In this document: positions 343 through 62,310 of the stretch, piece after piece
Layout: every line of letters starts with the position of its first letter
Position numbering within the stretch: position 1 is the stretch's first letter
Origin: Patescibacteria group bacterium
GTDB lineage: Bacteria > Patescibacteriota > Patescibacteriia > UBA2196
Assembly: GCA_028748975.1 (NCBI GenBank)
Contig: JAQTPI010000001.1
Span: 64,354-128,353, forward strand
Reading direction: 5' to 3'
Length of the DNA: 64,000 nucleotides
Made by a program: the position numbers and the translations under genes
The notes under the pieces: generated by a model
Told to the model about the DNA's origin: nothing
Database searches by the model: none
Seen by the model: the letters and a program-made list of their open reading frames with translations, nothing else

Positions 343-1353
343 TTAAATTATAAATCGTTTGATTAGTATTGTTGCTTCTTTTTTATTTTTAATCCACTTT
401 ATTTTTTTGTTGCGCTTGAACCATGTCATCTGCCGTTTGGCAAATTGGTGAGTGTGAATTTTGATTAAATTTATTGTCTCTAGGTCAATCTTTTGGCCCG
501 GTTTGTTTTTTAAAAAATCAATAATTTCTTTATAGCCAATGGTTTGCAGTGGCGCGGTATTTTTTCCGTACGTTCGCATTATTTTTTTTGTCTCTTCCGC
601 CAAACCGTTTTTTATCATTTTTTCCACTCGCGCGTCAATGCGTTTATCTAAAATATTTTTTTGGAAAGTAACACCCAATTGCAAGTAATCAAAAAGCGGC
701 TTGTTTTTCTTTCTCAATTCAGAAAATTTATAACCAGCCAAACAAACTTCCAAAACGCGGTCCAAGCGCCGTGGATTTCTGACATCAACAAATTTCAGCG
801 CCGCTGGATCCAGTTTTTTTAATAATTTTATTTTTTCTGATGTACTTAACTTTTCTAATTTTTTTCTTGTTTTTTTATCAGGCCCAACCGCCGGAAAATC
901 CAAATTATCGGTAATAGCGGAAATATAAAGTCCGGTGCCGCCAACAAGAATCGGCAATTTTCCGCGTCTAATAATATCATTAATTTCTTTCAGTGCCAGT
1001 TTTTTATGTTTAGCCACATTAAATTCGGTATTAGGATTAATGATATTTATGAGGTGATAGGGAACGAAAAAGTTGTCATCCCGGGCCGTGACCCGGGATC
1101 TAGGAATCGTTTTTCTGGATCCCCGCTGGAGTTTACCCCGCACCACGATGCGGAGCGGGAATGACATCACAGATAAACCATATTCTGATAAATCTTTACC
1201 AGTCCCAATATCCATCCCTTTATATACTTGTCGTGAGTCCGCTGAAACGATTTCCCCATTAAATTTTCGCGCCAAAGCTACCGCCAATTTGGTTTTACCG
1301 GTGGCGGTGGGGCCGAGAATGACAATTAATTTTGGCAGTTTTTTCTTTGACAT
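343..1353 (-). CDS. miaA: tRNA dimethylallyltransferase (MiaA)
   Basis: N-terminal P-loop GPTATGKT and MiaA-like sequence throughout. Carries an in-frame ~90-bp GC-rich palindromic repeat insertion at 1075-1165. Confidence 0.85.
   Translation of the reverse strand: MSKKKLPKLIVILGPTATGKTKLAVALARKFNGEIVSADSRQVYKGMDIGTGKDLSEYGLSVMSFPLRIVVRGKLQRGSRKTIPRSRVTARDDNFFVPYHLINIINPNTEFNVAKHKKLALKEINDIIRRGKLPILVGGTGLYISAITDNLDFPAVGPDKKTRKKLEKLSTSEKIKLLKKLDPAALKFVDVRNPRRLDRVLEVCLAGYKFSELRKKNKPLFDYLQLGVTFQKNILDKRIDARVEKMIKNGLAEETKKIMRTYGKNTAPLQTIGYKEIIDFLKNKPGQKIDLETINLIKIHTHQFAKRQMTWFKRNKKIKWIKNKKEATILIKRFII
1075..1165. repeat. family R1 palindromic element (GTCATCCYGAG..GGATCT type), composite copy inside the miaA CDS
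   Basis: gtcatcccgggccgtgacccgggatctagg...gggaatgac. 90 bp, in-frame. Confidence 0.7.
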
Positions 1354-2421: not shown

Positions 2422-3789
2422 TTATTTTTCTAATTTTCCTTCCAAACTCCACGGCCCGGCCTTGATAATTTTAGTTTTAACAATTTTTCCTATCAAATTG
2501 TTGATTGTTGACTGCTTACTGTTGGCTGAAATTTTTATATCCTTAAAATTTCTCGTCTTACCAAAATATATAATATCATTGTTACTTTTATTGCTTTTAT
2601 TACTATTAATACTTTTATTCCTTTCAATTAATACTTCTATATTCTTACCAACCATCTTTTTATTATTTTCCAAAGCTGTCTTTTTCAAAATTTCATTTAA
2701 GGCCACGCGGCGCTGGGTTTTTTCTTCAGCCGAAATACTATCTTTCAGTTTGGCGGAAGCGGTGCCAGCGCGTGGAGAATATTCCGCCAAATAGGCCAGA
2801 TCAAATTTTATTGATTTCATGAGATTGGCGGTTTTTTGAAAGTCTTGCTTTGTTTCATTGGGAAAGCCCACAATAATGTCGGTACTAATGCTAATATTGC
2901 GAATAGAACGACGAATCTTGCGAATAAGATTCAAATATTTTTTGGAATCATACTTTCTATTCATCGCTTTCAAAATTTTATCCGAACCGGCCTGGAGCGG
3001 CAGGTGCAAGTAGGGGATGAGGTGCTGGCAATTTTTAAAACATTTTATCAAATCTCCCGACATATCTTTTGGGTGGGAGGTAATAAAACTTAACCAATAA
3101 TCTCCTGGAATAGAATTAACTAATTTTAATAATTGTGGAAAGTTCACTTTACTTTTTTGAAATTTGAACTTTGAAATTTTATTGGAAATTGGAAATTGGA
3201 AATTGGAAATTTGTGAAACATAACTATTCACATTCTGGCCCAATAATATAATTAACTTATATCCTTGAACAACTAATTTGTTCACCTCCGAAATTATTTC
3301 TTCGGCTGGTCGGGAAACTTCACGCCCACGCGTGAAAGGCACGACGCAGTAAGAACAGAAATTATTACAGCCAGTCATAATTGGAACATAGGCGATAAAT
3401 TTTGAATTATAGTTTGGTAAAATTGAGAAATAATTTATGTCTTTATTGTTAGTTGTTAATTGTTGGTTGTTAATTTTATTTAACCAATTATCTAAATTTT
3501 TAATATCTAAAATATAATCAGCGTGTTTTTCAAACTTATTTTTATCCGCTACCAAAACGCAGCCTGTTAAAATGATTTTAGCTTTTGGATTTTTTTTTCT
3601 GATGTCATCCAGTTTGCCCCAGACGCGGTTAACAGCTGTTTGCCGCACCGAACATAAATTTAAAATTACCAAATCCGCCGAAGCCAGATCCGCCGGTTGC
3701 AAATTATTTTTTTTAAGATAGCCGGCGATTCTTTCCGAATCCGACCAGTTCATCTGGCAGCCGTAAGTGATAATGTGATAAGTTTTCAT
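2422..3789 (-). CDS. miaB: tRNA-i6A37 methylthiotransferase, radical SAM (MiaB family)
   Basis: YGCQMN N-terminal motif plus radical-SAM and TRAM regions. Contains an in-frame low-complexity insertion derived from the ggaaatt tandem repeats at 3140-3230. Confidence 0.85.
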   Translation of the reverse strand: MKTYHIITYGCQMNWSDSERIAGYLKKNNLQPADLASADLVILNLCSVRQTAVNRVWGKLDDIRKKNPKAKIILTGCVLVADKNKFEKHADYILDIKNLDNWLNKINNQQLTTNNKDINYFSILPNYNSKFIAYVPIMTGCNNFCSYCVVPFTRGREVSRPAEEIISEVNKLVVQGYKLIILLGQNVNSYVSQISNFQFPISNKISKFKFQKSKVNFPQLLKLVNSIPGDYWLSFITSHPKDMSGDLIKCFKNCQHLIPYLHLPLQAGSDKILKAMNRKYDSKKYLNLIRKIRRSIRNISISTDIIVGFPNETKQDFQKTANLMKSIKFDLAYLAEYSPRAGTASAKLKDSISAEEKTQRRVALNEILKKTALENNKKMVGKNIEVLIERNKSINSNKSNKSNNDIIYFGKTRNFKDIKISANSKQSTINNLIGKIVKTKIIKAGPWSLEGKLEK

Positions 3790-8069: not shown

Positions 8070-8228
8070 ACGAGCGCGCCTATCGGCGAATACCTAATAA
8101 CAACCACCCCGAGCCGACTGCTGTCGGCTCACCCCTCCTTCGAAAGGAGGGGATAACCACGCTGCTATCCTCCCCTTTCGAAGGGGAGGTCTCCGACAGC
8201 AGTCGGAGGGAGGAGTTGTAATTATTCG
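8070..8228. repeat. family R3 composite GC-rich palindromic module (CCCCTCC-TTCGAA-GGAGGGG units plus a CGCCTATCGGCG box)
   Basis: cccctccttcgaaaggagggg and tcctcccctttcgaaggggagg are nested inside gagccgactgctgtcggctc ... ccgacagcagtcgg. Confidence 0.7.
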
Positions 8229-8324
8229 CAAAATTTGCCAGTAATTAGCATTAATTCGTAGCCGTTTTTCCACTAATATTAGCCAAAAAACAGCATTTTA
8301 AGGTATTTATTAAAGTTATCCACT

Positions 8325-8784: not shown

Positions 8785-8835
8785 CTGACGAGATCCCTCG
8801 GCTCCTAACTTCTCTAAAAGGCCGCTCGGGATAAA
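8785..8835 (-). repeat. family R2 element (TTTATCCCGAGCGGCC..GAGCCGAGGGATCTCG), directly 3' of the dnaE stop
   Basis: Reverse complement of caatttatcccgagcggccttttagagaagttaggagccgagggatctcgtcag. Confidence 0.75.
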
Positions 8836-8842
8836 TTGCGGG

Positions 8843-11800
8843 CTATTTCACCGCCACGCTGCCTTCGCCGGTGATTTCTTCAATCCGCGCTTTCAGCGCG
8901 TCGCTATACTTAATTTTATAACTTGTTTGGATTTTGCGCAACACGCCGGTTTGTTCCACTGTCAGCATCACCTGGTGATTGCCCGGGTGTTCCAAAAACA
9001 CCGCTTTGATTTGCAAATGAATTTCCGTATTAAAATATTTTGGCAATTTAATCCAGACCTGATTGGCCACTGCTGTGTAAGCCACTGGCGCGGCCGGTTT
9101 GTTGTAGCGCGGAGCGTAGAAACCATTACCGCTATTACTATTATTACTGCTATTGCTATTATTATTTTTATTACTGTATCCGTTTCCGTTCGCCAGCGCT
9201 TTCTCTGCCGTGGTCAAAATTTCCTCCGCCGTTTCTGGGAAAATTTGAAAAGCGCTGTCCACCAAAACCTTGGCCTCATCATCTTTATAAGATAATTTTC
9301 CAACTACCACCACTGGCCGTCCTTCCACCCAAAGTTCGCTGGTCTTTTTCAAAACCGAAGGGAAAACAATAATTTCCAAGCCCGAATTCAAATCTTCCAA
9401 ACCCACAAAAAGCATGGGCTCGTTGGTTTTGGTAAATATTTTTTTAATGGTGCTGATAATGCCGGCGGAAATTATTTTTTCTTCGCGATTAATAGCTTTA
9501 ATTTCATTTAAAGAACGCACGCGCCCGGTTAATAAAGTAGCAACCTCTGCAAAGGGGTGGCTGGAAACATAAAGTCCGAGTAATTCTTTTTCCCACTGCA
9601 GTTTGGTTTTGATGTCAGTTGCTGCGGTGGCTTTTAGATTTAGTGGCAGCAAACCCGGGTCTTCGCCTGCTTTTGGTGCGGTAGCGAAGAGCGAGGTTTG
9701 CCTGTCGTCCGTTTCTTTCTTGCTGTTTTTAATATACCCCAAAATCAAATCCATATTGGCCATAATGGTGCCGCGTTCGGCAAAAGAATCCAAAGCCCCG
9801 CTCATAGCGAGCGCTTCCAATGATTTTTTATTTAAAGTCCGGCCCTGCACGCGCTTCAGCAAGTCCTCAAAAGATTTAAAGGGGCCATTTTTTTCGCGCT
9901 CGGCCACGATGACGTTGATGACATCAGCTCCCAAATTCTTGATGGCCAAAAAACCAAAACGAATTTCCGCGTCGGAAATGTAAGTAAAATTCAGGCGCGA
10001 CTCGTTAATGTCCGGCGGTAAAATTTTAATGCCCATTTTTTTGGCTTCCTGCACTGCCGCCGCCACTTTTTCCGCGTCATCCGATTCCATGCTCAAAACC
10101 ATGGTCATGTATTCAGTGGGGAAATTAGCTTTTAAATAAGCTGTCAAATAGGCGACAATGCCATAAGAAGCGGCATGCGCCTTGTTGAAACCATAAGCCG
10201 CGAAGGGTTTTATTAATTCCCAAAGAGCGTCTGTTTTTTCTTGGCTAAGTCCACCCGCCACGCAGCCGGCCTTGAATTTGTCTTCCTGCGCCATCATTTC
10301 CGCTGGAATTTTTTTGCCCATGGCTTTTCTAAATTTATCCGCTTCGTCCCAGTTATAGCCGGCCAGATGAATGGCCGAAAGCATAATGTCTTCTTGATAA
10401 ATCAAAAGTCCAAGCGACATATCCAAAACATCTTTCATTCGGGGGTCGGGGTAAGTAACCAGGGTCGGATTGTGTTTGCGCCGGATGAATTCCGGAATGG
10501 ATTCCATCGGTCCTGGGCGATAAAGCGCCACCATGGCCATAATGTCAAAAATATTAGTCGGTTTTAAATCAATTAAATATTTAGTCATGCCGGAGGAAGA
10601 AAGCTGGAAAACGCCAATGGTTTCACCCTTGGCCAAAAGTTCGTATGTTTTTTTGTCATCAAAAGGAACTTTGGCCAAATCAATTTCCACGCCCTTGGTT
10701 TTTTTAATCAGTTTAATCGCTTCACCCATAATAGACAAGTTGGTGATGCCCAAAAAATCAAATTTCAAAAGCCCGGCCGCTTCGGCCGCGCCCATTTCAT
10801 ATTGCGTGATTTTTTTGCGCCCAGATGGATCGCGCTGCAGCGGCACAAATTCCGTAATTTTTCTTGGCGCGATTAAAACTCCCGCGGCGTGGATGGAAGT
10901 GTGCCGGCAGCAACCCTCAATTTTTTGCGCCAATTCAATAATGCGTTTGGCGTCCGGATTATTTTCATACTCCATTTTTAATTCCGGATTAATTCCCATG
11001 GCCGCTTCAATAGTCATGGCGAAACCCTGCGAACCAAAAGGAATCATTTTGGCCAATTTGTCGCCGTATTCATACGGGATGCCGAGCGCCCGCGTCACAT
11101 CGCGGACCGAACCCCTCGCCATCATGGTGCCAAAGGTGCAAATCTGCGCCACTTTATCCGCGCCGTATTTTTTGGTGGCGTATTCAATCATTTCATCGCG
11201 GCGGTTGTCGGCAAAATCCATGTCAATATCCGGCGGCGACGGACGGAAAGGATTTAAAAAACGTTCAAAAGGCAATTTAAAAGCAATCGGGTCAATCGTG
11301 ATAATGCCAATGGCAAAACTGACGAGTGAACCAGCGGCCGAGCCTCTCGTGGTCATGACAATGCCGTTTTCTCTGGACCAGTTGATTAAATCCGCCACTA
11401 CCAGAAAATATGGCGCGTAGCCCTTCTTAATGATAATTTCCAGTTCATATTCCAATCGTTCCAGATAATTTTGGGGAGTATTGGGAATTTTTTTAGAAAG
11501 ACCATCGCGCGCGTTTTCTCGAAGCACTTCTTCCGCGGTTTTATTTTCCGGCAATTCAATCGCTGGAAAATTCCACTTGCCCAACTCCAATTTCACTTCG
11601 CATTGGTCAGCGATTTTTGCCGTGTTTTCAATCGCGCCGGGATATTTTTTGAATTTTTCTTCCATCACTTCCGGCGAAGCAAAAGAACAGTCAAATTCCA
11701 GCATGGACAGCCGGCCGGGCGTGTCCACGGTGGAGCCGGTGTTGATGGCCAGCATCACGTCCTGGGCTTCCGCGTCAACTTTATTAATATAGTGAGAATC

Positions 11801-19116: not shown

Positions 19117-19163
19117 TTTATCCCGAGCGGCCTTTTAGGGAAGTATTGAGCCGAGGGATCTCG
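19117..19163 (+). repeat. family R2 element, 8 nt after the DUF3048 gene stop
   Basis: gtttatcccgagcggccttttagggaagtattgagccgagggatctcg. Confidence 0.75.
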
Positions 19164-19173
19164 ATCATTTTTT

Positions 19174-20232: not shown

Positions 20233-21293
20233 ATTTTTATCACTGCCACTCGCCACTTCTTGGCCAAATCTTTCTTAAATTTCACATTTGCTTTGGGCAG
20301 GTGTTTTTTTATTAATTTTTCCAAAAGCGGTTTTTGAAATGGTAAAATTTCTAAAAATATTGTTAATTGTTTATTGTTTATTGTTAATTGTTTAATCTGT
20401 TTCAATAGTTTTTCATATAAAAATAATCCATTATTTTTTGCCACCAGTGCCGTGCGCGGTTCAAATTTTAATCCTTGATAATTCCGGCGGTAAATTTTTT
20501 CTGGTAAGTACGGTAAGTTGGCGGTAACAATAATTTTCATGTCATTTTGAAGCCCCGAAGGGGCTGATGGAATCTCAAGATCCCATCGGTCCGATTTTAT
20601 CGGACCTCGGGATGACAAAAGAAAATTAAGCAGGTCGCTTTTAATAAATCTTATTTTTTTAGTAAGTCCGTGCAACCGCGCGTTTTTTTTCGCCACGGCG
20701 AGCGCGCGCTCTGAAATATCAGTGGCGACAGCGTCAATTAACAGCCAACAATTAGCAACTAGCAAATTTTTTAGAATTGATATAATAAGACAACCACTTC
20801 CTGTGCCGACATCAATAATGATTATTTTTTGTTTTTTTGTCCCGAGTACTCGGGATTGTTTATTGTTAATTGTTAATTGATTAATTACTTCTTCCACCAT
20901 CATCTCCGTCTCCGGCCGGGGGATTAAAACATTTTTATTCACCCAGAAATCCAGCCCAAAAAATTCTTTCTGTCCTAAAATATACGCCACCGGCTCGTTT
21001 TTACTTCGCCGGGCAATAAATTTTTTATATTTTTTTTCTTGGGATTTAGTCAATTCAAGTTCCGGGTGAGCGTAGAGAAGAGATTTACCAATCGACGACC
21101 TCTCTCTATCTCTCCCCTTATTAAGGGGAGAGGGATGAACAACCCCCCCTCCTTTACAAGGAGAGGGTCGGGGGTGAGGTCGTTGGTTTAAAATATTTAC
21201 TAATAAAATTTCCGCGTCCAAACCCGCCGACTCAATTCCGGCTTCTTGTAATTTTTTAATAGCCCAATTTAAAATTTGACAGATTTTTGGCAT
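20229..21293 (-). CDS. prmC: release factor glutamine N5-methyltransferase (PrmC/HemK)
   Basis: DVGTGSGCL and NLPY(L) motifs, immediately downstream of prfA. Contains two in-frame palindromic repeat insertions (20541-20616 and 21099-21182) plus LTINNKQ tandem repeats. Confidence 0.8.
   Translation of the reverse strand: MPKICQILNWAIKKLQEAGIESAGLDAEILLVNILNQRPHPRPSPCKGGGVVHPSPLNKGRDRERSSIGKSLLYAHPELELTKSQEKKYKKFIARRSKNEPVAYILGQKEFFGLDFWVNKNVLIPRPETEMMVEEVINQLTINNKQSRVLGTKKQKIIIIDVGTGSGCLIISILKNLLVANCWLLIDAVATDISERALAVAKKNARLHGLTKKIRFIKSDLLNFLLSSRGPIKSDRWDLEIPSAPSGLQNDMKIIVTANLPYLPEKIYRRNYQGLKFEPRTALVAKNNGLFLYEKLLKQIKQLTINNKQLTIFLEILPFQKPLLEKLIKKHLPKANVKFKKDLAKKWRVAVIKI
20541..20616. repeat. 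family R1 palindromic element inside the prmC CDS
   Basis: gtcattttgaagccccgaaggggctg...cggacctcgggatgac. In-frame. Confidence 0.7.
21099..21182. repeat. family R3 module inside the prmC CDS
   Basis: ctctccccttattaaggggagag...ccccccctcctttacaaggagagggtcgggggtgagg. In-frame. Confidence 0.7.
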
Positions 21294-22697: not shown

Positions 22698-22754
22698 GTC
22701 ATCCTGACGACCCACGATCCGCCAGCTGGCGGACGGGGGAGGAAGGATCTCGTG
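22698..22754 (+). repeat. family R1 element
   Basis: gtcatcctgacgacccacgatccgccagctggcggacgggggaggaaggatctcgtg. Confidence 0.7.
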
Positions 22755-22855
22755 ATCGAAGCGATGGGTAATAAAGATATAAGGAAATAAGGATATAAAA
22801 GGTTGGTTCTATATTTCCTTATATCTTTATATCCCTATATCTTTTCTATAAAATT

Positions 22856-22895
22856 ACGAGATTCCTCGTCCCGAGTATTTGGGACTCGGAATGAC
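22856..22895 (-). repeat. family R1 element
   Basis: acgagattcctcgtcccgagtatttgggactcggaatgac. Confidence 0.65.
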
Positions 22896-22902
22896 AACCA
22901 CT

Positions 22903-22940
22903 AAAAAATCCTCCTATAAACTTATTATAGCAGGATTTTT
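22903..22940 (-). terminator. intrinsic terminator after rpmE
   Basis: aaaaatcct...aggattttt hairpin. Confidence 0.5.
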
Positions 22941-22958
22941 AAATAAATTTAAACTCAG

Positions 22959-23285
22959 CTACTTTTTTGTGCTCTTTTTGTGCCCTGACTTTTTGGTTTT
23001 GATAATTTCAATATCCTTGGCTTTTTTGGCCTTGAGTTCTTTTCTTTTGGCGGTCTTGCCAATTTTACCTTTAGCGGCAGCTTCTTTTTTAGCCACTTTT
23101 TCCTGGAATTTTTCCACGCGGCGCGCGCTGTCTACCAATTTCTGTTTGCCCGTATAAAACGGATGGCAGGCAGAGCAAATTTCCACCTTGATTTCTTCTT
23201 CGGTGGAGCCGGTGGTAAAAGAATGCCCGCAGGCGCAAATTACTTTGGCATTTTTGTAGTATTTTGGGTGTATGTCTTTCTTCAT
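22959..23285 (-). CDS. rpmE: 50S ribosomal protein L31 with a Lys-rich C-terminal extension
   Basis: MKKDIHPKY...[12 protein letters not shown]. Confidence 0.9.
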
Positions 23286-24953: not shown

Positions 24954-25004
24954 GTTTATCCCGAGCGGCCTTTAAGGAAGTTAGGAGCCGAGGGATCTCG
25001 TCAG
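24954..25004 (+). repeat. family R2 element, 9 nt after the tsf stop
   Basis: gtttatcccgagcggcctttaaggaagttaggagccgagggatctcgtcag. The inverted partner cgctcgagataaac at 25090-25104 makes a MITE-like unit. Confidence 0.75.
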
Positions 25005-25117
25005 TAATCCATTAATCCGTAATTTGTTAATGAATAATAAATAATTTTGAATAACCAACGAGATCTCTCGACTCGTCCCGAGTACTCGGGACTTCGCTCG
25101 AGATAAACTGCTGTTTT

Positions 25118-26975: not shown

Positions 26976-27012
26976 ATTCGCACCATTCGCACATAATTCG
27001 CACTAATTCGCA
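26976..27012. repeat. family R4 half-array (ATTCGCA x4) in the gap 5' UTR
   Basis: attcgcaccattcgcacataattcgcactaattcgca, downstream of an extended -10 TGGTATAAT. Confidence 0.65.
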
Positions 27013-27059
27013 TAAAACCGAATGACTGCGGGTGGGGCTGGCGAATAATAATAAACTCT

Positions 27060-29469: not shown

Positions 29470-29560
29470 GCTACGAATGTACGAATAAAACGAATTTACA
29501 AATAAATCACAAAATTATTCTGCGGCCATTCGTATATTCGTACGATTCGTAAATTTGTAG
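29470..29560. repeat. family R4 inverted array between hrcA and grpE
   Basis: gctacgaatgtacgaataaaacgaat...attcgtatattcgtacgattcgtaaatttgtag. Same terminal sequences as 3795-3884. Confidence 0.75.
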
Positions 29561-29567
29561 ATTTTTT

Positions 29568-30083
29568 ATGCATAAACACAAAGAACAACAAAATGAAAAT
29601 CAGGCGGAGCCAAAAGATAAGTGTCCGCAATGTGATGAATACCTCAACGGCTGGAAGCGCGCTTTGGCTGATTATGAAAATTTGAAAAAACAGACGGCTA
29701 AAGAAAAAGAAGAGTTTGCCAAGTTCGCCAACACCAATTTAATCATCGGTTTGATTCCAGTTTATAACAACCTCAAAATTTCTTTTGGCCATCTACCAGC
29801 AGATTTAAAAAATAATAATTGGGTTAAAGGAATTGAACACATCAGAAAACAAATGTTGGATGTTTTGGAATTCAATGGCGTGGAAGAAATTGTGCCGAAA
29901 ATTGGCGAGAAGTTTAATCCGGAGCTGCACGAAGCGGTGAAGAGTGAAGAGCAAATAGTGAATAGTGAACAGATAACAGACGACAAACAACAAACAACAG
30001 ATCATAAAATAGTAAAAGTTTTGAGTGATGGTTACAAATTAAACGGCCGGGTGTTTATGCCGGCGAAAGTGGTTGTCGCTTAA
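29568..30083 (+). CDS. grpE: nucleotide exchange factor GrpE
   Basis: GrpE coiled-coil and C-terminal beta region, directly downstream of hrcA. Confidence 0.88.
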   Translation: MHKHKEQQNENQAEPKDKCPQCDEYLNGWKRALADYENLKKQTAKEKEEFAKFANTNLIIGLIPVYNNLKISFGHLPADLKNNNWVKGIEHIRKQMLDVLEFNGVEEIVPKIGEKFNPELHEAVKSEEQIVNSEQITDDKQQTTDHKIVKVLSDGYKLNGRVFMPAKVVVA

Positions 30084-30096
30084 ACCCAAAAAAATG

Positions 30097-30136
30097 TCAT
30101 TCCGAATCAGCCAGCAGGCGGAGAGGAATCTCGTTA
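30097..30136 (+). repeat. family R1 variant, 3' of the grpE stop
   Basis: gtcattccgaatcagccagcaggcggagaggaatctcgtt. Confidence 0.6.
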
Positions 30137-30195
30137 TCTCCCCCTTAAGAAGGGGGAGCGCGAGGGGGTCAACTCGCCGCTAGGCGCGTATAATT
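30137..30195. repeat. family R3 module
   Basis: atctcccccttaagaagggggagcgcgagggggtcaactcgccgctaggcgcgtataatt. Confidence 0.65.
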
Positions 30196-30197
30196 AA

Positions 30198-30242
30198 CGA
30201 GATCCCTCGTCGTCCCGAAGCGCCGGGACTCCTCGGGATGAC
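30198..30242 (-). repeat. family R1 element
   Basis: cgagatccctcgtcgtcccgaagcgccgggactcctcgggatgac. Confidence 0.7.
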
Positions 30243-30257
30243 AATCACCTATGAATT

Positions 30258-30548
30258 ATGGACACTCTAACTTCCCACACCCTCCATCTCATAAAAAATT
30301 GTCCTGTTTGCAAGGCCAAGTTTGGCGAGGGGCAAATTAGCGTCGTGGAAAAAGATGAGGAAGGCAAAGCCACGGTTTTGTTAAGTTGTCAGAATTGTCA
30401 AAGCGCGCTTTTGGCGCGGGTGGTGGAAATGCCGTTTGGAATTTTAGGCACGGCCTCTTTGACTGACATTCAGGCGAGTGAAGTTAAAAAATTCGCGGCC
30501 GGTGGCAAAGTGACGTTTGATGATGTGCTGGATTTGTATGGAAAATAA
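30258..30548 (+). CDS. hypothetical zinc-ribbon protein
   Basis: CPVC...CQNC arrangement. Lies between grpE and dnaK. Confidence 0.4.
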   Translation: MDTLTSHTLHLIKNCPVCKAKFGEGQISVVEKDEEGKATVLLSCQNCQSALLARVVEMPFGILGTASLTDIQASEVKKFAAGGKVTFDDVLDLYGK

Positions 30549-30559
30549 TTTTTTTGGTT

Positions 30560-30596
30560 GTCATCCTGAGCGAAGCGAAGGATCCTGTGGCCGAAG
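30560..30596 (+). repeat. family R1 element
   Basis: gtcatcctgagcgaagcgaaggatcctgtggccgaag, followed by the taataaagatataaggatataaa module. Confidence 0.65.
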
Positions 30597-33207: not shown

Positions 33208-33249
33208 GTCATCCTGAGTCCCGAGCACTCGGGGCGAAGGATCTCGTTG
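33208..33249 (+). repeat. family R1 element, 10 nt after the dnaK stop
   Basis: gtcatcctgagtcccgagcactcggggcgaaggatctcgttg. Confidence 0.75.
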
Positions 33250-33348
33250 TAGAATTATGAATTAAGAATTAAGGACGGCGGGCCGACATTCGTCGGCCCG
33301 CCGCAGCTCACGTTTGTCATTCCGGGCTTGACCTGGAATCCAGAAAAA

Positions 33349-33696: not shown

Positions 33697-33702
33697 AAAA
33701 GC

Positions 33703-33735
33703 CGTCGGTAGCGACGGCTGTGGGTGCTGCGATGA
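33703..33735 (-). terminator. intrinsic terminator for the 33741 gene
   Basis: agccgtcg-gtag-cgacggct followed by a T-run on the minus strand. Confidence 0.6.
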
Positions 33736-34513: not shown

Positions 34514-34694
34514 AAAAACCTCCTTTTGTTTGTTTTTCCTCCCAATATAAATTGTGCTTTTATCTTATCATTAATAATTAAATCCTGTCAAGCGGCAGAA
34601 AATAATATTTGTCATTCCGGCCCGAGAGCCGGAATCCAGAAATTGTTTCTCTGGATTCCCGCTTTCGCGGGAATGACAAAGAAAGAAAATTTTT

Positions 34695-34973
34695 ATGGAC
34701 AATCAAAATCAAATCCAAATTAAAGATCCTTTTGCTGGTGCCGAATATGCTAATGTGATGAACATTAATTCCAGTAAAGAAGAGTTTTTGTTGAACTTTT
34801 TTAATATTGCCGGTGCGAATGGCAGGGTAGTTGGTAAAATAATCGTCAGCCCCAGGCACTTAAAAAGAATGTCTGGCGTGTTAACTAAAGTATTAAAAGA
34901 TTATGAAGAAAAGTTTGGTAAACTTGAAGAAGCCAATGAACCAAATACGGAAATAGGTTTTAAAGCCGAATAA
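34695..34973 (+). CDS. hypothetical small protein
   Basis: 92-aa ORF between two repeat elements, upstream of dnaJ. Confidence 0.45.
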
Positions 34974-34976
34974 AAC

Positions 34977-35022
34977 TGACGAGATCCCACCACCCCACAA
35001 ATGTGGGGTTCGGGATGACAAC
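34977..35022 (-). repeat. family R1 element
   Basis: ctgacgagatcccaccaccccacaaatgtggggttcgggatgacaa. Confidence 0.7.
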
Positions 35023-36174: not shown

Positions 36175-36220
36175 GTTTATCCCGAGCGACCTCGTAGGGA
36201 AGTATTGAGCCGAGGGATCT
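36175..36220 (+). repeat. family R2 element, 7 nt after the dnaJ stop
   Basis: gtttatcccgagcgacctcgtagggaagtattgagccgagggatct. Confidence 0.75.
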
Positions 36221-36349
36221 GGTTTGAGGGTAGAAGGGTAATAAGTAATTTAGTATATAGAAGTAACCGTTTTTGATGGCGTTTGACAGGCCGATAATTA
36301 TATGCTAAGTTTTAATTGGTACATTTAAACCCAAAAACAAAAGGAGGTT

Positions 36350-45790: not shown

Positions 45791-45838
45791 ATTTGGTTTT
45801 AAGCTAAGTTTTGAACTAACCACGCTAAAAATAACACA

Positions 45839-45882
45839 ACGGGATCCCTCGGCCGATGAAATATCGGCCTCGGGATGACAAA
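45839..45882 (-). repeat. family R1 element in the mraZ 5' UTR
   Basis: acgggatccctcggccgatgaaatatcggcctcgggatgacaaa. Confidence 0.7.
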
Positions 45883-47289: not shown

Positions 47290-47380
47290 TGCGAATTATT
47301 ACAAATTTTGTGCGAATTTTACGAACAGATTATTTGATGTTTATTCGCACAATTCGCAGGTAATTCGCCATTAATTCGCA
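47290..47380. repeat. family R4 inverted array after rsmH
   Basis: tgcgaattattacaaattttgtgcgaattttacgaac...attcgcacaattcgcaggtaattcgccattaattcgca. Confidence 0.75.
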
Positions 47381-47549
47381 TAAGACACGGTAAAAAACAA
47401 CGAGCGGGTGAAAAATGAATAAATTTAATAAATAGTAGGGTTAATAGAAATATATAGGGAAAGCGTAAGCCGTCGAACTGACGGTAAAAACAAAAATAAA
47501 AATGTCCAAGTATTTTTCATTTTGCAATGATAAGCAGAAAAGGTTAAAT

Positions 47550-49751: not shown

Positions 49752-49881
49752 TAATTTTTTTATAGCCTGCCCTGAGCGCTAGCGAAGGGCACCAGCCGAA
49801 TTTTGGGGAGGCAATATTAAAATCGCTAGAACCATCAAAAAATCCCTTTGTTACTCCGTTACTTTGTTACTTTATTATTCA

Positions 49882-49939
49882 CCGCTTCGGCCACGGGATC
49901 CTTCGCCTCGCCCATGCTTGGGCGATGGCTCAGGATAGA
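49882..49939 (-). repeat. family R1 element with an internal insertion, just upstream of murF
   Basis: ccgcttcggccacgggatccttcgcctcgcccatgcttgggcgatggctcaggatag. Confidence 0.6.
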
Positions 49940-49952
49940 CTTAGTAAAACCT

Positions 49953-51230: not shown

Positions 51231-51240
51231 CACGACAGTG

Positions 51241-51280
51241 TCATCCTGAGCCCCGCAAATGCGGGGCGAAGGATCTCGTT
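51241..51280 (+). repeat. family R1 element, 11 nt after the murF stop
   Basis: gtcatcctgagccccgcaaatgcggggcgaaggatctcgt. Confidence 0.75.
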
Positions 51281-51386: not shown

Positions 51387-51424
51387 ATTCGCAAAATTCG
51401 CCGGTAATTCGCACTAATTCGAAT
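51387..51424. repeat. family R4 half-array abutting a promoter
   Basis: attcgcaaaattcgccggtaattcgcactaattcgaat, ending 12 nt before the TTGACA at 51436. Confidence 0.6.
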
Positions 51425-51435
51425 AATTACAAAAT

Positions 51436-51537: not shown

Positions 51538-51705
51538 ATGAAAGAATGTTCTTTTTGCGGCATGCCTCTTAAAAGCGATGCCGAAGCTGACCTTTGTGAT
51601 TTTTGCCTCAATGATGACGGCAAAGAAATGCTGGCCGCTCCCGCAGCGGAAGAGCTTGATTTGGAAAACCCGACTTCCACCGGCTGGACCGAGACAGTGG
51701 AGTAG
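51538..51705 (+). CDS. hypothetical small zinc-ribbon peptide
   Basis: 55-aa ORF with CxxC...CxxC. Consensus promoter at 51436-51464. Not in the ORF track (too short). Confidence 0.35.
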   Translation: MKECSFCGMPLKSDAEADLCDFCLNDDGKEMLAAPAAEELDLENPTSTGWTETVE

Positions 51706-51725: not shown

Positions 51726-51773
51726 GTTTATCCCGAGCGGCCTCCTAGGGAATTTAGGAGTCGAGGGATCTCG
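51726..51773 (+). repeat. family R2 element, 21 nt after the small ORF stop
   Basis: gtttatcccgagcggcctcctagggaatttaggagtcgagggatctcg. Confidence 0.7.
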
Positions 51774-51800
51774 TGAAAATTTATTGTGATTTACAGTAGG

Positions 51801-52299: not shown

Positions 52300-52392
52300 C
52301 CATTTTCCTAATCGGTAGTGATAAACTAGTGGTTAGAAAAATGGGCAAACGACCCAGAAGTTTCAGAATTTAAAACGCACCTGGCGTGTCCA
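52300..52392 (+). repeat. island direct repeat, copy 1 (R5)
   Basis: ccattttcctaatcggtagtgataaactagtggttagaaaaatgggcaaacgacccagaagtttcagaatttaaaacgcacctggcgtgtccagg. The 47-nt imperfect hairpin is cccattttcctaatc / ggttagaaaaatggg. Confidence 0.8.
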
Positions 52393-52418
52393 GGCAAAAT
52401 TAAATAAGGAGGTGATGT

Positions 52419-52756: not shown

Positions 52757-52852
52757 CGTCTGCGAAACATCGTAGACGCCCGCCAGCCCATTTTCCTAAT
52801 CGGTAGTGATAAACTAGTGGTTAGAAAAATGGGCAAACGACCCAGAAGTTTC
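52757..52852 (+). repeat. island direct repeat, copy 2 (R5)
   Basis: 96 bp with 3 mismatches to copy 1. Preceded by a GC-rich hairpin. Confidence 0.8.
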
Positions 52853-52901
52853 AAAATCTAAAACGCGCCTGGCGTGTCCAGGAAATATCAAGGAGGAAGA
52901 A

Positions 52902-53661: not shown

Positions 53662-53718
53662 CCCATTTTCCTAATCGGTAGTGATAAACTAGTGGTTAGA
53701 AAAATGGGCAAACGACCC
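53662..53718 (+). repeat. island direct repeat, copy 3 (R5, 57-bp core only)
   Basis: Identical hairpin core cccattttcctaatcggtagtgataaactagtggttagaaaaatgggcaaacgaccc, then it diverges. Confidence 0.8.
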
Positions 53719-53782
53719 ATTTTCCTCCTGGCCTTAGGGGGAATGTAAAAAATTACATTACAAATTTTTAGGAGGAAGATCA

Positions 53783-57594: not shown

Positions 57595-57638
57595 GTCATC
57601 CTGACGACCCCGAGGCCTCGGGGGAGGAAGGATCTCGT
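57595..57638 (+). repeat. family R1 element, 2 nt after the alaS stop
   Basis: gtcatcctgacgaccccgaggcctcgggggaggaaggatctcgt. Confidence 0.75.
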
Positions 57639-57639
57639 A

Positions 57640-57765
57640 AATATCCCCTCCTTTCGAAGGAGGGGTGCGAGCGAGAGCGAGCGGGGTGGTTGTGGTAGAA
57701 TATTTTTACAACCCCTCCGTTCCGCTGCGGCGGAACACCTCCCCTTCGAAAGGGGAGGATAACGA
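57640..57765. repeat. family R3 composite module
   Basis: atcccctcctttcgaaggaggggtg...cctccccttcgaaaggggagg with ccgttccgctgcggcggaac. Confidence 0.7.
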
Positions 57766-57808
57766 CGAGATCCCTCGTCGTCCCGCGCCCGTGACTCCTC
57801 GGGATGAC
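57765..57808 (-). repeat. family R1 element
   Basis: acgagatccctcgtcgtcccgcgcccgtgactcctcgggatgac. Confidence 0.7.
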
Positions 57809-57824
57809 ACCCCACTAAAACTTT

Positions 57825-59039
57825 ATGGACCCCAAAACCTACCAACCAACCCATAATTACCAACCTCCGGAAAAAGCCAAAAAAAGCAAAAAGGCCAAAT
57901 GGCTTGGCCGGTTGTTTTTTCTGGTTCTGATTGCCGCGGTCATCGTGGTGCTTTTTGGTTTTGTTTTGCCGACCGCGGAAGTGACTGTCTATTTTTCTTC
58001 CACGGATTTGAGCAAGGACTATGAAGTTGTTTTGGACCAAAATTTAAACAGTCCTGATTCCGCGCGGCTGTCACTCCCGGCGCGGGTCTATGAAGAAACA
58101 GGGGAGGAACAGAAAAAATTTCAAACCACCGGCAAAAAAGATATGGGCGACAAGGCCTCCGGCTCGGCCACTTTTTTCAACTATACCGGCCGGCCCTATC
58201 CTTTGACTCCGACCGTGGAATTAAATCATTCATCCGGAAAGATTTATATTTTAAAAAGCGAATTAACCATTCCCGCTGCCACCGTTTCCGATACTGGTGA
58301 AATTGTGCCCGGAAAAATTCAAGGCGATGTGGAAGGCAAGGATGCCGGCGATTCTTTCAACCAAGCCGCCGGCCGTCTTAATCTTTCCATTTTAACACCG
58401 GAACTGCAAAGCAAAGTTTACGCCGATGTTGGGGCAATCAGCGGCGGCACCAGTAAATTAGTGTCCGTAATTTCGCAGGAAGATTTGGACAATGCTCAAA
58501 ATGAATTAAGCAATACCCTGACTTTGAAATTGAAAACAAAAATTAGGGATCGCCTAAAAAAGAATGAAGAAATGATGCGCGATGAACTCACCAATTTTGA
58601 AATTTTGAGCTCGGAAAAAAGCGTGGAGCTGGACAAAGAAGCCAAGGACTTTGATATGAAAATTACGGGCAAACTCAAAACCCTCGCCTTTAATGAAACC
58701 GAATTGAAGAATTTTCTCAAAACCCGCAGTCTAACCGATTTGCCTTCGGACAAAATGATCGCGGAAGATGATTTGGGTGAACTGCAAATCGCGGTTGATC
58801 AGGCCGATTTCAGTTTGGGCGTGGCTAAATTGAAAGTCAAAGCGACCTATAAAACTTTCCCCAAAACCGATTTGAGTTCGCTCCGCGATAAAATCAAAGG
58901 CCTCTCGGAAGTGGACGCCCGCCGCCTAATTTTAGGCACGGAAAACATCCGCGATGTTCATTTCAGTTTTTCTTTCAATCTTTGGAACAAACTGCCGACC
59001 AATGTCAATAAAATAAAAATCAAGGTGGGGAACAAATAG
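57825..59039 (+). CDS. hypothetical membrane-anchored protein (paralog of 6892-8022)
   Basis: N-terminal transmembrane helix and a long extracytoplasmic domain with a shared C-terminal motif. Confidence 0.5.
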   Translation: MDPKTYQPTHNYQPPEKAKKSKKAKWLGRLFFLVLIAAVIVVLFGFVLPTAEVTVYFSSTDLSKDYEVVLDQNLNSPDSARLSLPARVYEETGEEQKKFQTTGKKDMGDKASGSATFFNYTGRPYPLTPTVELNHSSGKIYILKSELTIPAATVSDTGEIVPGKIQGDVEGKDAGDSFNQAAGRLNLSILTPELQSKVYADVGAISGGTSKLVSVISQEDLDNAQNELSNTLTLKLKTKIRDRLKKNEEMMRDELTNFEILSSEKSVELDKEAKDFDMKITGKLKTLAFNETELKNFLKTRSLTDLPSDKMIAEDDLGELQIAVDQADFSLGVAKLKVKATYKTFPKTDLSSLRDKIKGLSEVDARRLILGTENIRDVHFSFSFNLWNKLPTNVNKIKIKVGNK

Positions 59040-60337: not shown

Positions 60338-60567
60338 CTAGACCCTAATGTTTGGGGCTTATATTCTTACAATGGAATACTTCCTAAACCCGAAAGTTTT
60401 GGCTAACCTTAGCCAAAAATATGACTTTTGGGTGGTAGGTTTTGTAAGAAATATGAGCTATCCACAAAAGAAAGCTCGTATTTTTTTAGTGCTTTTTGTC
60501 ATTCCGAACTTGTTTCGGAATCTCAAAAGTAGATGCTGAAATAAATTCAGCATGACAAACAAAATAA
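60338..60567 (+). ncRNA. candidate structured leader or sRNA between the 60305 promoter and infA
   Basis: Hairpins ttggctaa-cc-ttagccaa, attccgaa-cttgtt-tcggaat, atgctgaa-ataaa-ttcagcat and a terminator-like gagct..agctc-T7 at 60456-60490. The ORF-track product at 60348 is low-complexity. Confidence 0.25.
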
Positions 60568-60897
60568 ATGACTGAACCAATCAAAAAAGAAGAAGAAATA
60601 ATCACGCCCGCTCCTGTAACTCCGGTTAGTTCAACGGCGCCTGTTTCTGGTGATAATAATGAAGATTTTTCCCGTTTCAAAATCAATAAAAAGGGTTTTA
60701 TGGAAATTGACGGCGAAGTGGTGGAAACTCTGCCCAGCATCACTTTTAAGGTGCGCTTGGAAAACGACCACGAAGTTTTGGCCCGTCTTTCCGGCCGCAT
60801 GCGCCTGAATAAAATTATGCTTTTGCCTGGCGACCGGGTGCGCGTGGAAATGACACCTTATGATTTGAATAAAGGGAGGATTACGTATAGGTACTAA
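60568..60897 (+). CDS. infA: translation initiation factor IF-1 with an N-terminal extension
   Basis: C-terminal ~70 aa match the IF-1 S1-like fold ([24 protein letters not shown]...[17 protein letters not shown]). Confidence 0.8.
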
Positions 60898-62209: not shown

Positions 62210-62300
62210 TGCGAATTATTGGCGAATTACTTGCGAATTGTGCAAATAGCTACCAAATAATCTGTTCGCAAAATTCGCACAAAATTCGTAAGAATTCGTA
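62210..62300. repeat. family R4 inverted array between rpsK and rpsD
   Basis: tgcgaattattggcgaattacttgcgaatt...ttcgcaaaattcgcacaaaattcgtaagaattcgta, ending 11 nt before the rpsD ATG. Confidence 0.75.
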
Positions 62301-62310
62301 TAAAGTTTTT

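Follow-up and report, generated by a model that had tools for sequence, protein, structure and literature searches.

A 64,000-nucleotide (nt) stretch of a Patescibacteria metagenome-assembled genome (contig JAQTPI010000001.1 of assembly GCA_028748975.1, positions 64,354 to 128,353 of the forward strand; hereafter the window, to whose numbering coordinates refer unless another locus is named) contains many short palindromic repeats of two kinds, R1 and R2, including an R1 copy directly behind dnaK (33208-33248, plus strand, 9 nt past the stop codon). A preliminary description had taken these repeats for dedicated RNA elements of 3' untranslated regions (3'-UTRs). We conclude that they are not dedicated mRNA 3'-end elements, and that they probably belong to the CGTC/TGTC-tagged superfamily of repetitive extragenic palindromic (REP) sequences, as kin of the dRS3/NTS, RPE-4/6 and Ssn-related motif (SRM) repeats, acting as strand-specific DNA hairpins tied to a nuclease of the Ssn type. 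Judged by their architecture, R1 and R2 are a new structural variant of this known repeat/nuclease system, with tandem G·A pairs, a hypervariable arm and, in R2, an AGTTTAT tag. The nearest named relatives of the source organism, based on its DnaK, were Kuenenbacteria (85-86% identity).

Window copies were identified by reading in context by eye and with a detector for tag, stem and tail. By eye, there were 27 copies per 64 kb (approximately one per 2.4 kb), and the detector, whose sole requirements were the tag, a 5-bp stem whose first bases are AT, and a C next to the AT that closes it, returned 23 copies versus 0.44 in shuffled sequences. The 5' box GTCATCCYGAG (at most one mismatch) occurred 13 times in the window (0.63 expected) and the 3' box GGATCTCG 11 times (0.92 expected); the repeats are real and far more frequent than chance would allow. 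The copies take three forms on one common plan: simple perfect hairpins (for example GTCATTCCCGCGAAAGCGGGAATCCAG at 34649-34677, minus strand), R1 and R2. In R1 and R2 this plan comprises a (T/C)GTC-AT or AGTTT-AT tag, a 5-bp proximal stem, tandem G·A, a variable distal hairpin and AT-C-TCG. The stem opens with AT...AT followed by C in all window copies (GTC-AT...AT-C), simple copies end in a CCAG tail and R1 and R2 in a CTCG tail, and GTCAT was preceded by T in 86% and by C in 12% of 147 copies.

In R1, 5'-GA-3' opposite 5'-GA-3' (the tandem G·A) sits on the proximal stem ATCCY/RGGAT; beyond it come a closing pair and then a distal hairpin unique to each copy in the window. The copy behind dnaK, which reads GTCATCCTGAGTCCCGAGCACTCGGGGCGAAGGATCTCGTT, thus divides into a TGTC tag, the proximal stem ATCCT/AGGAT, the tandem G·A, the distal hairpin TCCCGAG-CA-CTCGGGG and the tail CTCGT, and several others (22698, 30242, 57595, 57808) have two G·A modules. 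R2 combines the AGTTTAT tag with a conserved, poorly pairing insert on the base ATCCCGAG...CGAGGGATCTCG. This base is common to R1 and R2, which differ in tag (TGTCAT versus AGTTTAT) and insert, and by their sequences they are not two independent families. Of the two palindromic families initially proposed, the hairpins of R1 were borne out; R2 proved only weakly palindromic and shares its base with R1.

The CGTC-tagged REP superfamily was defined by Di Nocera, De Gregorio & Rocco (2013, BMC Genomics 14:522, PMC3733652) and includes dRS3 of Neisseria and RPE-4 and RPE-6 of Rickettsia. Its members often have TGTC as their tag, a stem beginning with A-T and T-A pairs and a short unpaired tail; they occur predominantly as dimers with the tags outward (tags-out), lie less than 20 nt from the ends of open reading frames (ORFs), are found inside genes in some cases (Rickettsia RPE-4/6) and have no known dedicated transposase (PMC3733652). 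The window repeats share with this superfamily the unpaired (T/C)GTC tag, the A-T/T-A opening pairs, the unpaired tail, the tags-out dimers, the placement at ORF ends and the in-frame intragenic copies. R1 and R2 differ from the described CGTC families in their 5-bp proximal stem, one or two tandem G·A modules, distal hairpin of a few to approximately 40 nt and CTCG tail, as well as in the AGTTTAT tag of R2, and their Patescibacteria host is outside the phyla listed in the 2013 survey.

The second point of comparison is the Neisseria sequence NTS, CGTCATTCCCGCGMAVGCGGGAATCYRG, an extension of the dRS3 repeat (Chenal et al. 2025, Nat Commun 16:2388, PMC11893778). SsnA, a single-domain GIY-YIG nuclease of approximately 100 amino acids (aa), binds and cuts NTS as single-stranded DNA (ssDNA) only, a few nt upstream of the hairpin; cleavage depends on the GTC 5' of the palindrome and binding on the C adjoining its 3' side, substitution or lengthening of the loop leaves cleavage intact, and ssn genes are typically flanked by SRM (PMC11893778). 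R1 has both the GTC and the C in these positions, and the tolerance of the NTS loop fits a variable distal hairpin on a conserved base in R1 and R2. One simple window copy (34649-34677) matches the NTS consensus except at its first base. The SRM search motif, HGTCWYN(0-2)YYVSBRHN(0-5)WNVSBRGN(0-2)RNCYNB, had two matches in the window, 1074-1103 (plus) and 34651-34678 (minus), against 0.14 expected. There is no mention of Patescibacteria in the text of Chenal et al. 2025 (PMC11893778), full-text literature searches for the R1 core sequences returned no paper, and searches combining Patescibacteria with REP returned none describing these repeats.

The link to a nuclease comes from related loci. 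Strict R1 boxes searched against GTDB genomes matched at least 120 loci in Chloroflexota, Acidobacteriota, Planctomycetota, Nitrospirota, Proteobacteria, Bacteroidota, Bacillota, Omnitrophota, several Patescibacteria lineages and others; among the matches listed, single genomes often contributed several R1 loci. The 8-kb stretches around 120 listed matches contained one GIY-YIG gene, a figure that is not a measure of enrichment; it belongs to a Terriglobia locus (L101) and is enclosed by the two R1 copies of a tags-out pair. A GIY-YIG homologue is also encoded by an R2-bearing metagenome locus (L167), whose sample also yielded contigs 84-88% identical to the window, and with this protein as query we retrieved Patescibacteria homologues. 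Four of their loci share one layout, in which an R1 copy (TGTCAT...ATCYCGT) is followed after 7-58 nt by the ATG of the gene, and its stop, after 0-39 nt, by an inverted R1 copy ending in ATGACA. The R1 head, putative ssn gene and inverted R1 head were at 691 (plus), 747-1058 and 1106 (minus) in L233, between iscU and nifU; at 2052 (plus), 2115-2429 and 2508 (minus) in L234, between recJ and rnhA; at 2701 (plus), 2751-3065 and 3114 (minus) in L235, between parA and parB; and at 9916 (plus), 10001-10327 and 10328 (minus) in L236 (and L238), again between recJ and rnhA. The flanking R1 pairs thus occur in differing genomic contexts (iscU/nifU, recJ/rnhA, parA/parB). An R2-type copy is present too in L233 and L167, and GTCAT-tagged hairpins were found within 200 nt at all 12 of 12 further homologue loci (L242-L253, 35-52% identity), with those in L248 and upstream in L245 being canonical NTS.

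The window repeats and the NTS/SRM-Ssn system therefore have in common repeats on both sides of a single-domain GIY-YIG gene of approximately 100 aa, in relatives and not in the window itself. The encoded proteins match PF01541 only, and their alignment keeps the catalytic Y, Y/G, R, H, E and N residues of GIY-YIG enzymes. NCBIfam holds no named family for them, their nearest PDB matches were the UPF0213 GIY-YIG proteins 1zg2 and 1ywl, and a PDB sequence search found no solved Ssn structure. From the flanking NTS-type repeats, we infer that they are candidate members of the Ssn family. Tags point towards ordinary genes, and the ssn gene is the one exception in that it is enclosed by a tags-out pair, much as cargo is enclosed by terminal inverted repeats. 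Synteny between L236 and the window covers the block hrcA-grpE-dnaK-DUF3467-dnaJ, and L236 has a tags-out pair from 13 nt past its dnaK stop. Between DUF3467 and dnaJ the same locus carries a gene of the 23S_rRNA_IVP family (PF05635, 17110-17472), where the window spacer holds an inverted R1 copy (34978-35019) alone. Small window ORFs beside the elements were considered as partner nucleases and rejected: 30258-30548, 22879-23157 and 1073-1372 matched no family, 34695-34973 is DUF3467, 60568-60897 is IF-1, and none is GIY-YIG.

We assessed how the repeats are placed relative to genes in the window, where genes were mapped with Pfam and two starts were corrected (mraZ, ATG 45893; murF, ATG 49954), and in a wider census of 598 kb comprising the window and 100 metagenome loci (534 kb) matched by R2 boxes, some of them 76-88% identical to parts of the window. 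ORFs in this census, which held 299 copies, were called with a crude heuristic. The tagged end (GTCAT or TTTAT) was within 21 nt of the boundary of a coding sequence (CDS) in 19 of 23 intergenic window copies, at 10 stops and 9 starts, and the opposite end was usually 80-760 nt from the next gene. In the wider census, the head was nearer the flanking CDS than the tail in 112 versus 22 cases (p = 1e-15; 39 versus 11 for singletons alone), the median distance to the CDS was 15 nt for heads and 132 nt for tails, and neighbouring copies formed 60 tags-out (convergent), 10 tags-in (divergent) and 49 tandem pairs. Convergent copies with their tags outside were found at eight intergenic or intragenic spots in the window. 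As a rule, copies turn their tagged end to the nearest CDS, be it at a stop or a start codon, and heads adjoin starts as often as stops in this compact genome.

This rule bears on the model of the preliminary description, namely dedicated 3'-UTR RNA hairpins that block 3'-5' exonucleases or mark processing or U-less termination, which we consider unlikely. Its core observation was reproduced: R1 copies in sense orientation begin 1-12 nt past the stops of alaS (57595), dnaK (33208), murF (51240), grpE (30096) and orf96 (30560), and five R2 copies (8835 minus, 19117 plus, 24955 plus, 36176 plus and 51727 plus) follow stops in sense at 7-21 nt. Overall, 10 or 11 window copies are sense and 1-21 nt past a stop (one of them at 63 nt), including all five R2. 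As RNA, the window hairpins are predicted to be stable (-12 to -30 kcal/mol), and E. coli REPs stabilise upstream mRNA (PMC3733652). The absence of a U-tract was also confirmed for R1 and R2, which do not show the GC-rich hairpin directly followed by a U-tract of an intrinsic terminator. A terminator scan of the window flagged no intact R1 or R2 hairpin (the sole overlap being two short fragments within 22855-22895) and found canonical hairpin-plus-U terminators elsewhere (20200, 26172, 26858 and 33700-33719, among others), so that the repeats would form a distinct class under this model.

However, the orientation that the model depends on was not general. The copy after the ORF ending at 34973, said to be oriented as in every other case, is on the minus strand with its head near the dnaJ ATG, and among 13 R1-type window copies 6 were sense and 7 antisense. 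Between co-directional genes of the wider census, 38 copies were sense and 53 antisense (p = 0.14), and R2-type (TTTAT) heads, supposedly always behind stops, lay no more than 25 nt from a stop in 38 cases and from a start in 34. Nine window copies lie antisense directly 5' of start codons and four are in-frame inside CDSs, in keeping with the initial remark that inverted copies occur 5' of mraZ and of the gene at 57825 and others inside CDSs. By the test put forward in the preliminary description, orientation relative to transcription was random across the 598 kb, and placement relative to gene borders strongly non-random. The model also sits poorly with the lack of any match to Rfam 15 covariance models at gathering score over the whole window, and with elements that bracket a nuclease gene as terminal inverted repeats.

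The conserved fold provides a further argument. Across 242 GTCAT-tagged copies from all sequences retrieved, the triplets beside the proximal stem were GAG/CGA in 104, GAC/GGA in 14 and GAA/TGA in 6, with the rest fully Watson-Crick there; part of this set was retrieved by a pattern fixing GAG, and only the minority classes are therefore unbiased. These classes indicate that the G·A pairs are constant and that the closing pair covaries. A comparison of hairpins between copies, as suggested in the preliminary description, found the base conserved and the distal hairpin variable, with 116 distinct distal sequences among 134 copies, which are more stable when folded than shuffled sequences (median z = -1.8 with DNA parameters). 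G·T wobbles outnumbered A·C mismatches by 53 to 6 on the tagged strand. The conserved fold is always on the tagged DNA strand, whichever way transcription runs, and the G·A motif is conserved equally in antisense copies, whose RNA would have C·U/U·C mismatches in its place. The hairpin thus appears to be selected on one DNA strand that is sense in approximately half of copies, so the conserved fold is not primarily an mRNA feature.

Folding energies were of less use. Single-copy z-scores were modest (-0.9 to -4.4), and folding energy alone is weak evidence because the nearest-neighbour model gives sheared G·A pairs no credit; the structural case was accordingly built on closing-pair covariation and distal-hairpin diversity. 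With RNAalifold, 95 distinct R2-type copies yielded the 5-bp proximal stem alone, since their inserts cannot be aligned. The arrangement CUGA...GAA on either side of a hairpin recalls a hammerhead ribozyme or a K-turn; both were rejected, as there is no full CUGAnGA core, no 3-nt bulge and no Rfam match, and half of all copies would be transcribed antisense. At 49773-49794, 21 nt past the ftsI stop, lies a hairpin that has the G·A module of the repeats but no tag, GCCCTGA-GCGCTAGC-GAAGGGC, which shows that G·A-stabilised hairpins are not confined to copies with the GTCAT/ATC boxes.

The same structural data weigh on the idea that the repeats are duplex protein-binding sites (operator, nucleoid or supercoiling) or U-less terminators at gene borders, unconnected with any nuclease or with mobility. 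The strikingly exact placement at CDS borders (median 15 nt) and the retention of positions between relatives would suit such sites. However, a duplex site needs neither intra-strand pairing across 116 distal hairpins nor G·A and G·T pairs on one strand, some copies are in-frame inside CDSs, and the spread of strict R1 boxes over at least 120 loci in many phyla suits a mobile element better than a lineage-specific regulator. We regard this explanation as very improbable.

The preliminary description had also drawn an analogy with the REP sequences and bacterial interspersed mosaic elements (BIMEs) of E. coli. This proved right, and more literal than intended, in that the repeats resemble CGTC/TGTC-tagged REPs; it was not supported in the form of a dedicated sense 3'-UTR RNA element. 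In outline, the window repeats share with E. coli REP/BIME and with the REPINs (paired REPs) and REP-associated tyrosine transposases (RAYTs) of Pseudomonas the short tagged hairpins, inverted pairs, intergenic mosaics and post-gene placement. Further likenesses are a domesticated or selfish single-strand nuclease partner and a possible protection of mRNA 3' ends. The repeats might thus be classical REPs or REPINs mobilised by a RAYT (an IS200/IS605-type tyrosine transposase), as in E. coli and Pseudomonas, and their frequent inverted pairs and mosaics with other repeats do resemble BIMEs and REPINs. Yet the tag is (T/C)GTC, not the GTAG that accompanies a tyrosine (HUH/Y1) transposase, no Y1-transposase (Y1_Tnp) domain was found in the window ORFs scanned with Pfam, and the gene inside tags-out pairs is GIY-YIG, not RAYT. 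Given also the 2013 survey, in which CGTC repeats flanked no RAYT (PMC3733652), we attach almost no probability to this route.

Several comparisons suggest that the repeats have moved and that their arms turn over. The 41-nt R1 copy past murF has an identical copy behind a different gene in a metagenome locus (L229). In the tsf-PSP1 spacer, a tags-out pair occupies the same place in the related locus L188, whose coding flanks are 84% identical and whose distal hairpins and spacer are unrelated. A tags-out pair of approximately 26 aa (aa 226-251) is in-frame in prmC, just ahead of an NPPY-like motif, and the relative L137 has a pair of the NTS type at the same site. Shared pair positions together with replaced distal hairpins indicate that positions are old and that the variable arm turns over, which may occur by re-insertion, gene conversion or hairpin-templated correction. 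In-frame insertion is a feature of the Rickettsia RPE as well; here, tags-out pairs in prmC and in miaA (approximately 31 aa, aa 63-93, 1075-1165) leave the ORF unbroken. The difference from RPE lies in the host phylum and in the element at the shared prmC site, which varies between relatives (R1-type versus NTS-type).

Taken together, we propose that the tagged strand would fold as ssDNA during replication, in transcription bubbles or upon DNA uptake, and that an Ssn-type nuclease encoded elsewhere in the genome would bind the proximal stem and the next C of this strand and nick it a few nt 5' of the tag. The spreading unit would be the tags-out pair, with or without ssn as cargo, with empty pairs and solo copies being non-autonomous derivatives. 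Copies would last where they do least harm, either in the few spacer nt beside CDS ends or in tolerant protein loops, and any effect on mRNA, such as the 3'-end protection by sense copies that the E. coli REPs make plausible, would be secondary. Because its tag has TTT instead of GTC, R2 may be a site that is bound and poorly cut, or may match another enzyme specificity, a speculation drawn from the Neisseria mutagenesis.

Some observations count against this interpretation. No GIY-YIG (ssn) gene was found in the 64-kb window, either with Pfam on ORFs or with a GIY-YIG regular expression over six frames, so in this organism we infer the cognate nuclease rather than observe it. The families CGTC-1 to CGTC-4 have perfect stems of 8-9 bp, loops of 4-5 nt and a CCA tail, and R1 and R2 fall outside them; this stem and loop are found in simple copies only (1075, 33316, 34611, 34649, 60498, 60527). 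The SRM motif likewise matches no R1 or R2 copy in the window, because these are too long. R2 retains the C but has TTT where the Neisseria enzyme needs GTC for cleavage, and its insert folds poorly, with the 19117 copy folding no better than shuffles. In the wider census, 120 of 299 copies lay 'inside' the crude ORFs, many of these probably being artefacts of over-extended ORFs.

Two other roles may be considered for the same repeats. The repeat/nuclease pair could serve gene-by-gene ssDNA processing, for example by trimming incoming or displaced strands into gene-length recombination modules, with the hypervariable hairpin, on its constant G·A-stabilised base, as an 'address' of the locus. 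At many gene borders in the window the presumed cleavage side of the hairpin faces the gene, which would place the cut of an Ssn-type nuclease exactly where CDS and hairpin meet, on either strand. We rate this possibility as a long shot. On a weaker reading, sense copies would have a second role in Patescibacteria mRNAs, as their main 3'-end structures lacking a U-tract.

The individual R1 copies illustrate these placements. Past murF, the copy at 51240-51280 (plus) begins 9 nt after the stop. A tags-out pair between alaS and the gene at 57825 has on its left 57595-57639 (plus), 1 nt past the alaS stop, and on its right 57764-57808 (minus), with its head 16 nt 5' of the gene start and antisense to it; both have two tandem G·A modules. 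An R1-like copy, GTCATTCCGAA... (30096-30135, plus, 12 nt past the grpE stop), forms the left half of another tags-out pair, and an R1 with two G·A modules is found at 30196-30242 (minus), with its head 15 nt 5' of the orf96 start and antisense. Behind orf96, 11 nt past its stop, is a minimal R1, GTCATCCTGA-GCGAAGC-GAAGGATCC (30560-30589, plus). Its distal hairpin, GCGAAGC, is well known as a DNA mini-hairpin of exceptional stability. The copy GACGAGATCC...GGGATGAC at 34978-35019 (minus) fills the spacer of 52 nt between DUF3467 and dnaJ; it runs opposite to the upstream ORF, with its head 6 nt from the dnaJ ATG. Further antisense copies precede mraZ (45838-45879, minus, head 13 nt 5' of the ATG) and murF (49892-49942, minus, with a GTCTAT head approximately 11 nt 5' of the ATG). 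An R1 with two G·A modules (22698-22754, plus) overlaps with its head the start of the minus-strand prfA ORF, to which it is antisense, and pairs with an R1-like copy, GTCATTCCGAG... (22855-22895, minus), in sense 63 nt past the rpmE stop. The prmC pair consists of an R1 in-frame within the CDS (20574-20616, minus) and an R1-like copy, GTCATTTTGAAGCCCC... (20541-20579, plus), which together encode aa 226-251.

R2 copies follow dnaE (AATTTATCCCGAGCGGCC...GAGCCGAGGGATCTCG, 8787-8835, minus, 7 nt past the stop and in sense), the DUF3048 gene (19117-19165, plus, 7 nt), tsf (24955-25002, plus, 9 nt), dnaJ (36176-36224, plus, 7 nt) and a 55-aa ORF at 51538-51705 (51727-51775, plus, 21 nt). The copy behind tsf is the left half of the tags-out pair whose position is kept in L188; an R2-tagged copy with an R1-type distal hairpin (GTTTATCTCGAG, 25057-25107, minus) has its head 10 nt 5' of the PSP1 gene start and is antisense to it. 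Among the simple copies, the canonical NTS-type GTCATTCCCGCGAAAGCGGGAATCCAG at 34649-34677 (minus), which fits both the published NTS consensus and the SRM search motif, has a perfect-stem partner in a tags-out pair, GTCATTCCGGCCCGAGAGCCGGAATCCAG (34611-34641, plus). The copy GTCATTCCGGGCTTGACCTGGAATCCAG (33316-33345, plus) lies between dnaK and the DUF2784 gene. Within miaA, GTCATCCCGGGCCGTGACCCGGGATCTAG (1075-1105, plus), in-frame and fitting the SRM motif, is paired tags-out with an imperfect tagged copy, GTCATTCCCGCTCCGC...GGGGATCCAG (1112-1165, minus), the pair encoding aa 63-93. A tight tags-out pair 5' of infA is formed by GTCATTCCGAACTTGTTTCGGAATCTC (60498-60527, plus) on the left and GTCATGCTGAATTTATTTCAGCATCTAC (60527-60556, minus) on the right, the latter with its head 11 nt 5' of the infA ORF start.

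Further palindromic families and other repeats are also present in the window. A second palindromic family, CCCCTCCTT-NNNN-AAGGAGGGG, has copies of approximately 35-60 nt, often in the interior of tags-out R1 pairs (30133-30195, 57644-57767), with copies starting at 8125, 8164, 12535, 12598, 21145, 30133, 40074, 40111, 42801, 55556, 56489, 57644 and 57731; the copy at 21145-21182 is in-frame in the N-terminal domain of prmC. Runs of ATTCGCA/ATTCGTA units at approximately 10-nt spacing (8224-8263, 26976-27015, 29536-29575, 47343-47382, 51387-51426, 62264-62303), several of them directly 5' of gene starts (gap, grpE), may serve as an operator or as a repeat associated with promoters. A 104-nt direct repeat occurs three times among unannotated small ORFs (52300-52403, 52788-52891 and 53663-53766, the latter two 94% and 63% identical to the first). 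In two further loci, a different small GIY-YIG subfamily (MYYCYILQSLLNNRYYAGSTDNIQARLECHNKG...; L134 4099-4416, L198 5648-5965) lies beside tRNA genes, between direct repeats resembling the 5' half of a tRNA, and may be a tRNA-targeting homing element.

The repeats also leave traces in gene calls and assemblies. The acidobacterial ssn ORF of L101 (4619-4978) is among those that run into the inverted R1, giving a C-terminal ...DPSLRSG, with ATGAC of R1 providing the TGA stop, and at 22698-22702 the reverse complement of GTCAT provides an ATG that lengthens the prfA ORF. Two contigs of approximately 1 kb from Logan (L254 and L255) that encode exactly the window Tsf end right past tsf at the R2 copy, and the repeats evidently fragment short-read assemblies of these genomes.

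These results place what looked like orphan '3'-UTR hairpins' in a known system, that of the CGTC/TGTC-tagged REPs and the recently discovered Ssn ssDNA nucleases. In practical terms, the repeats break short-read assemblies and yield spurious ORFs, misplaced starts and stops (ATGAC/GTCAT) and mis-annotated 'hypothetical proteins', and their constant base with a variable arm could offer natural substrates for engineering Ssn enzymes. For Patescibacteria, the results extend the system to genomes in which repeats are dense, housekeeping operons are decorated with them and copies are in-frame in miaA and prmC. The published SRM motif misses a large subfamily of extended hairpins with tandem G·A that is widespread (at least 120 loci in many phyla), and published censuses may therefore undercount the system.

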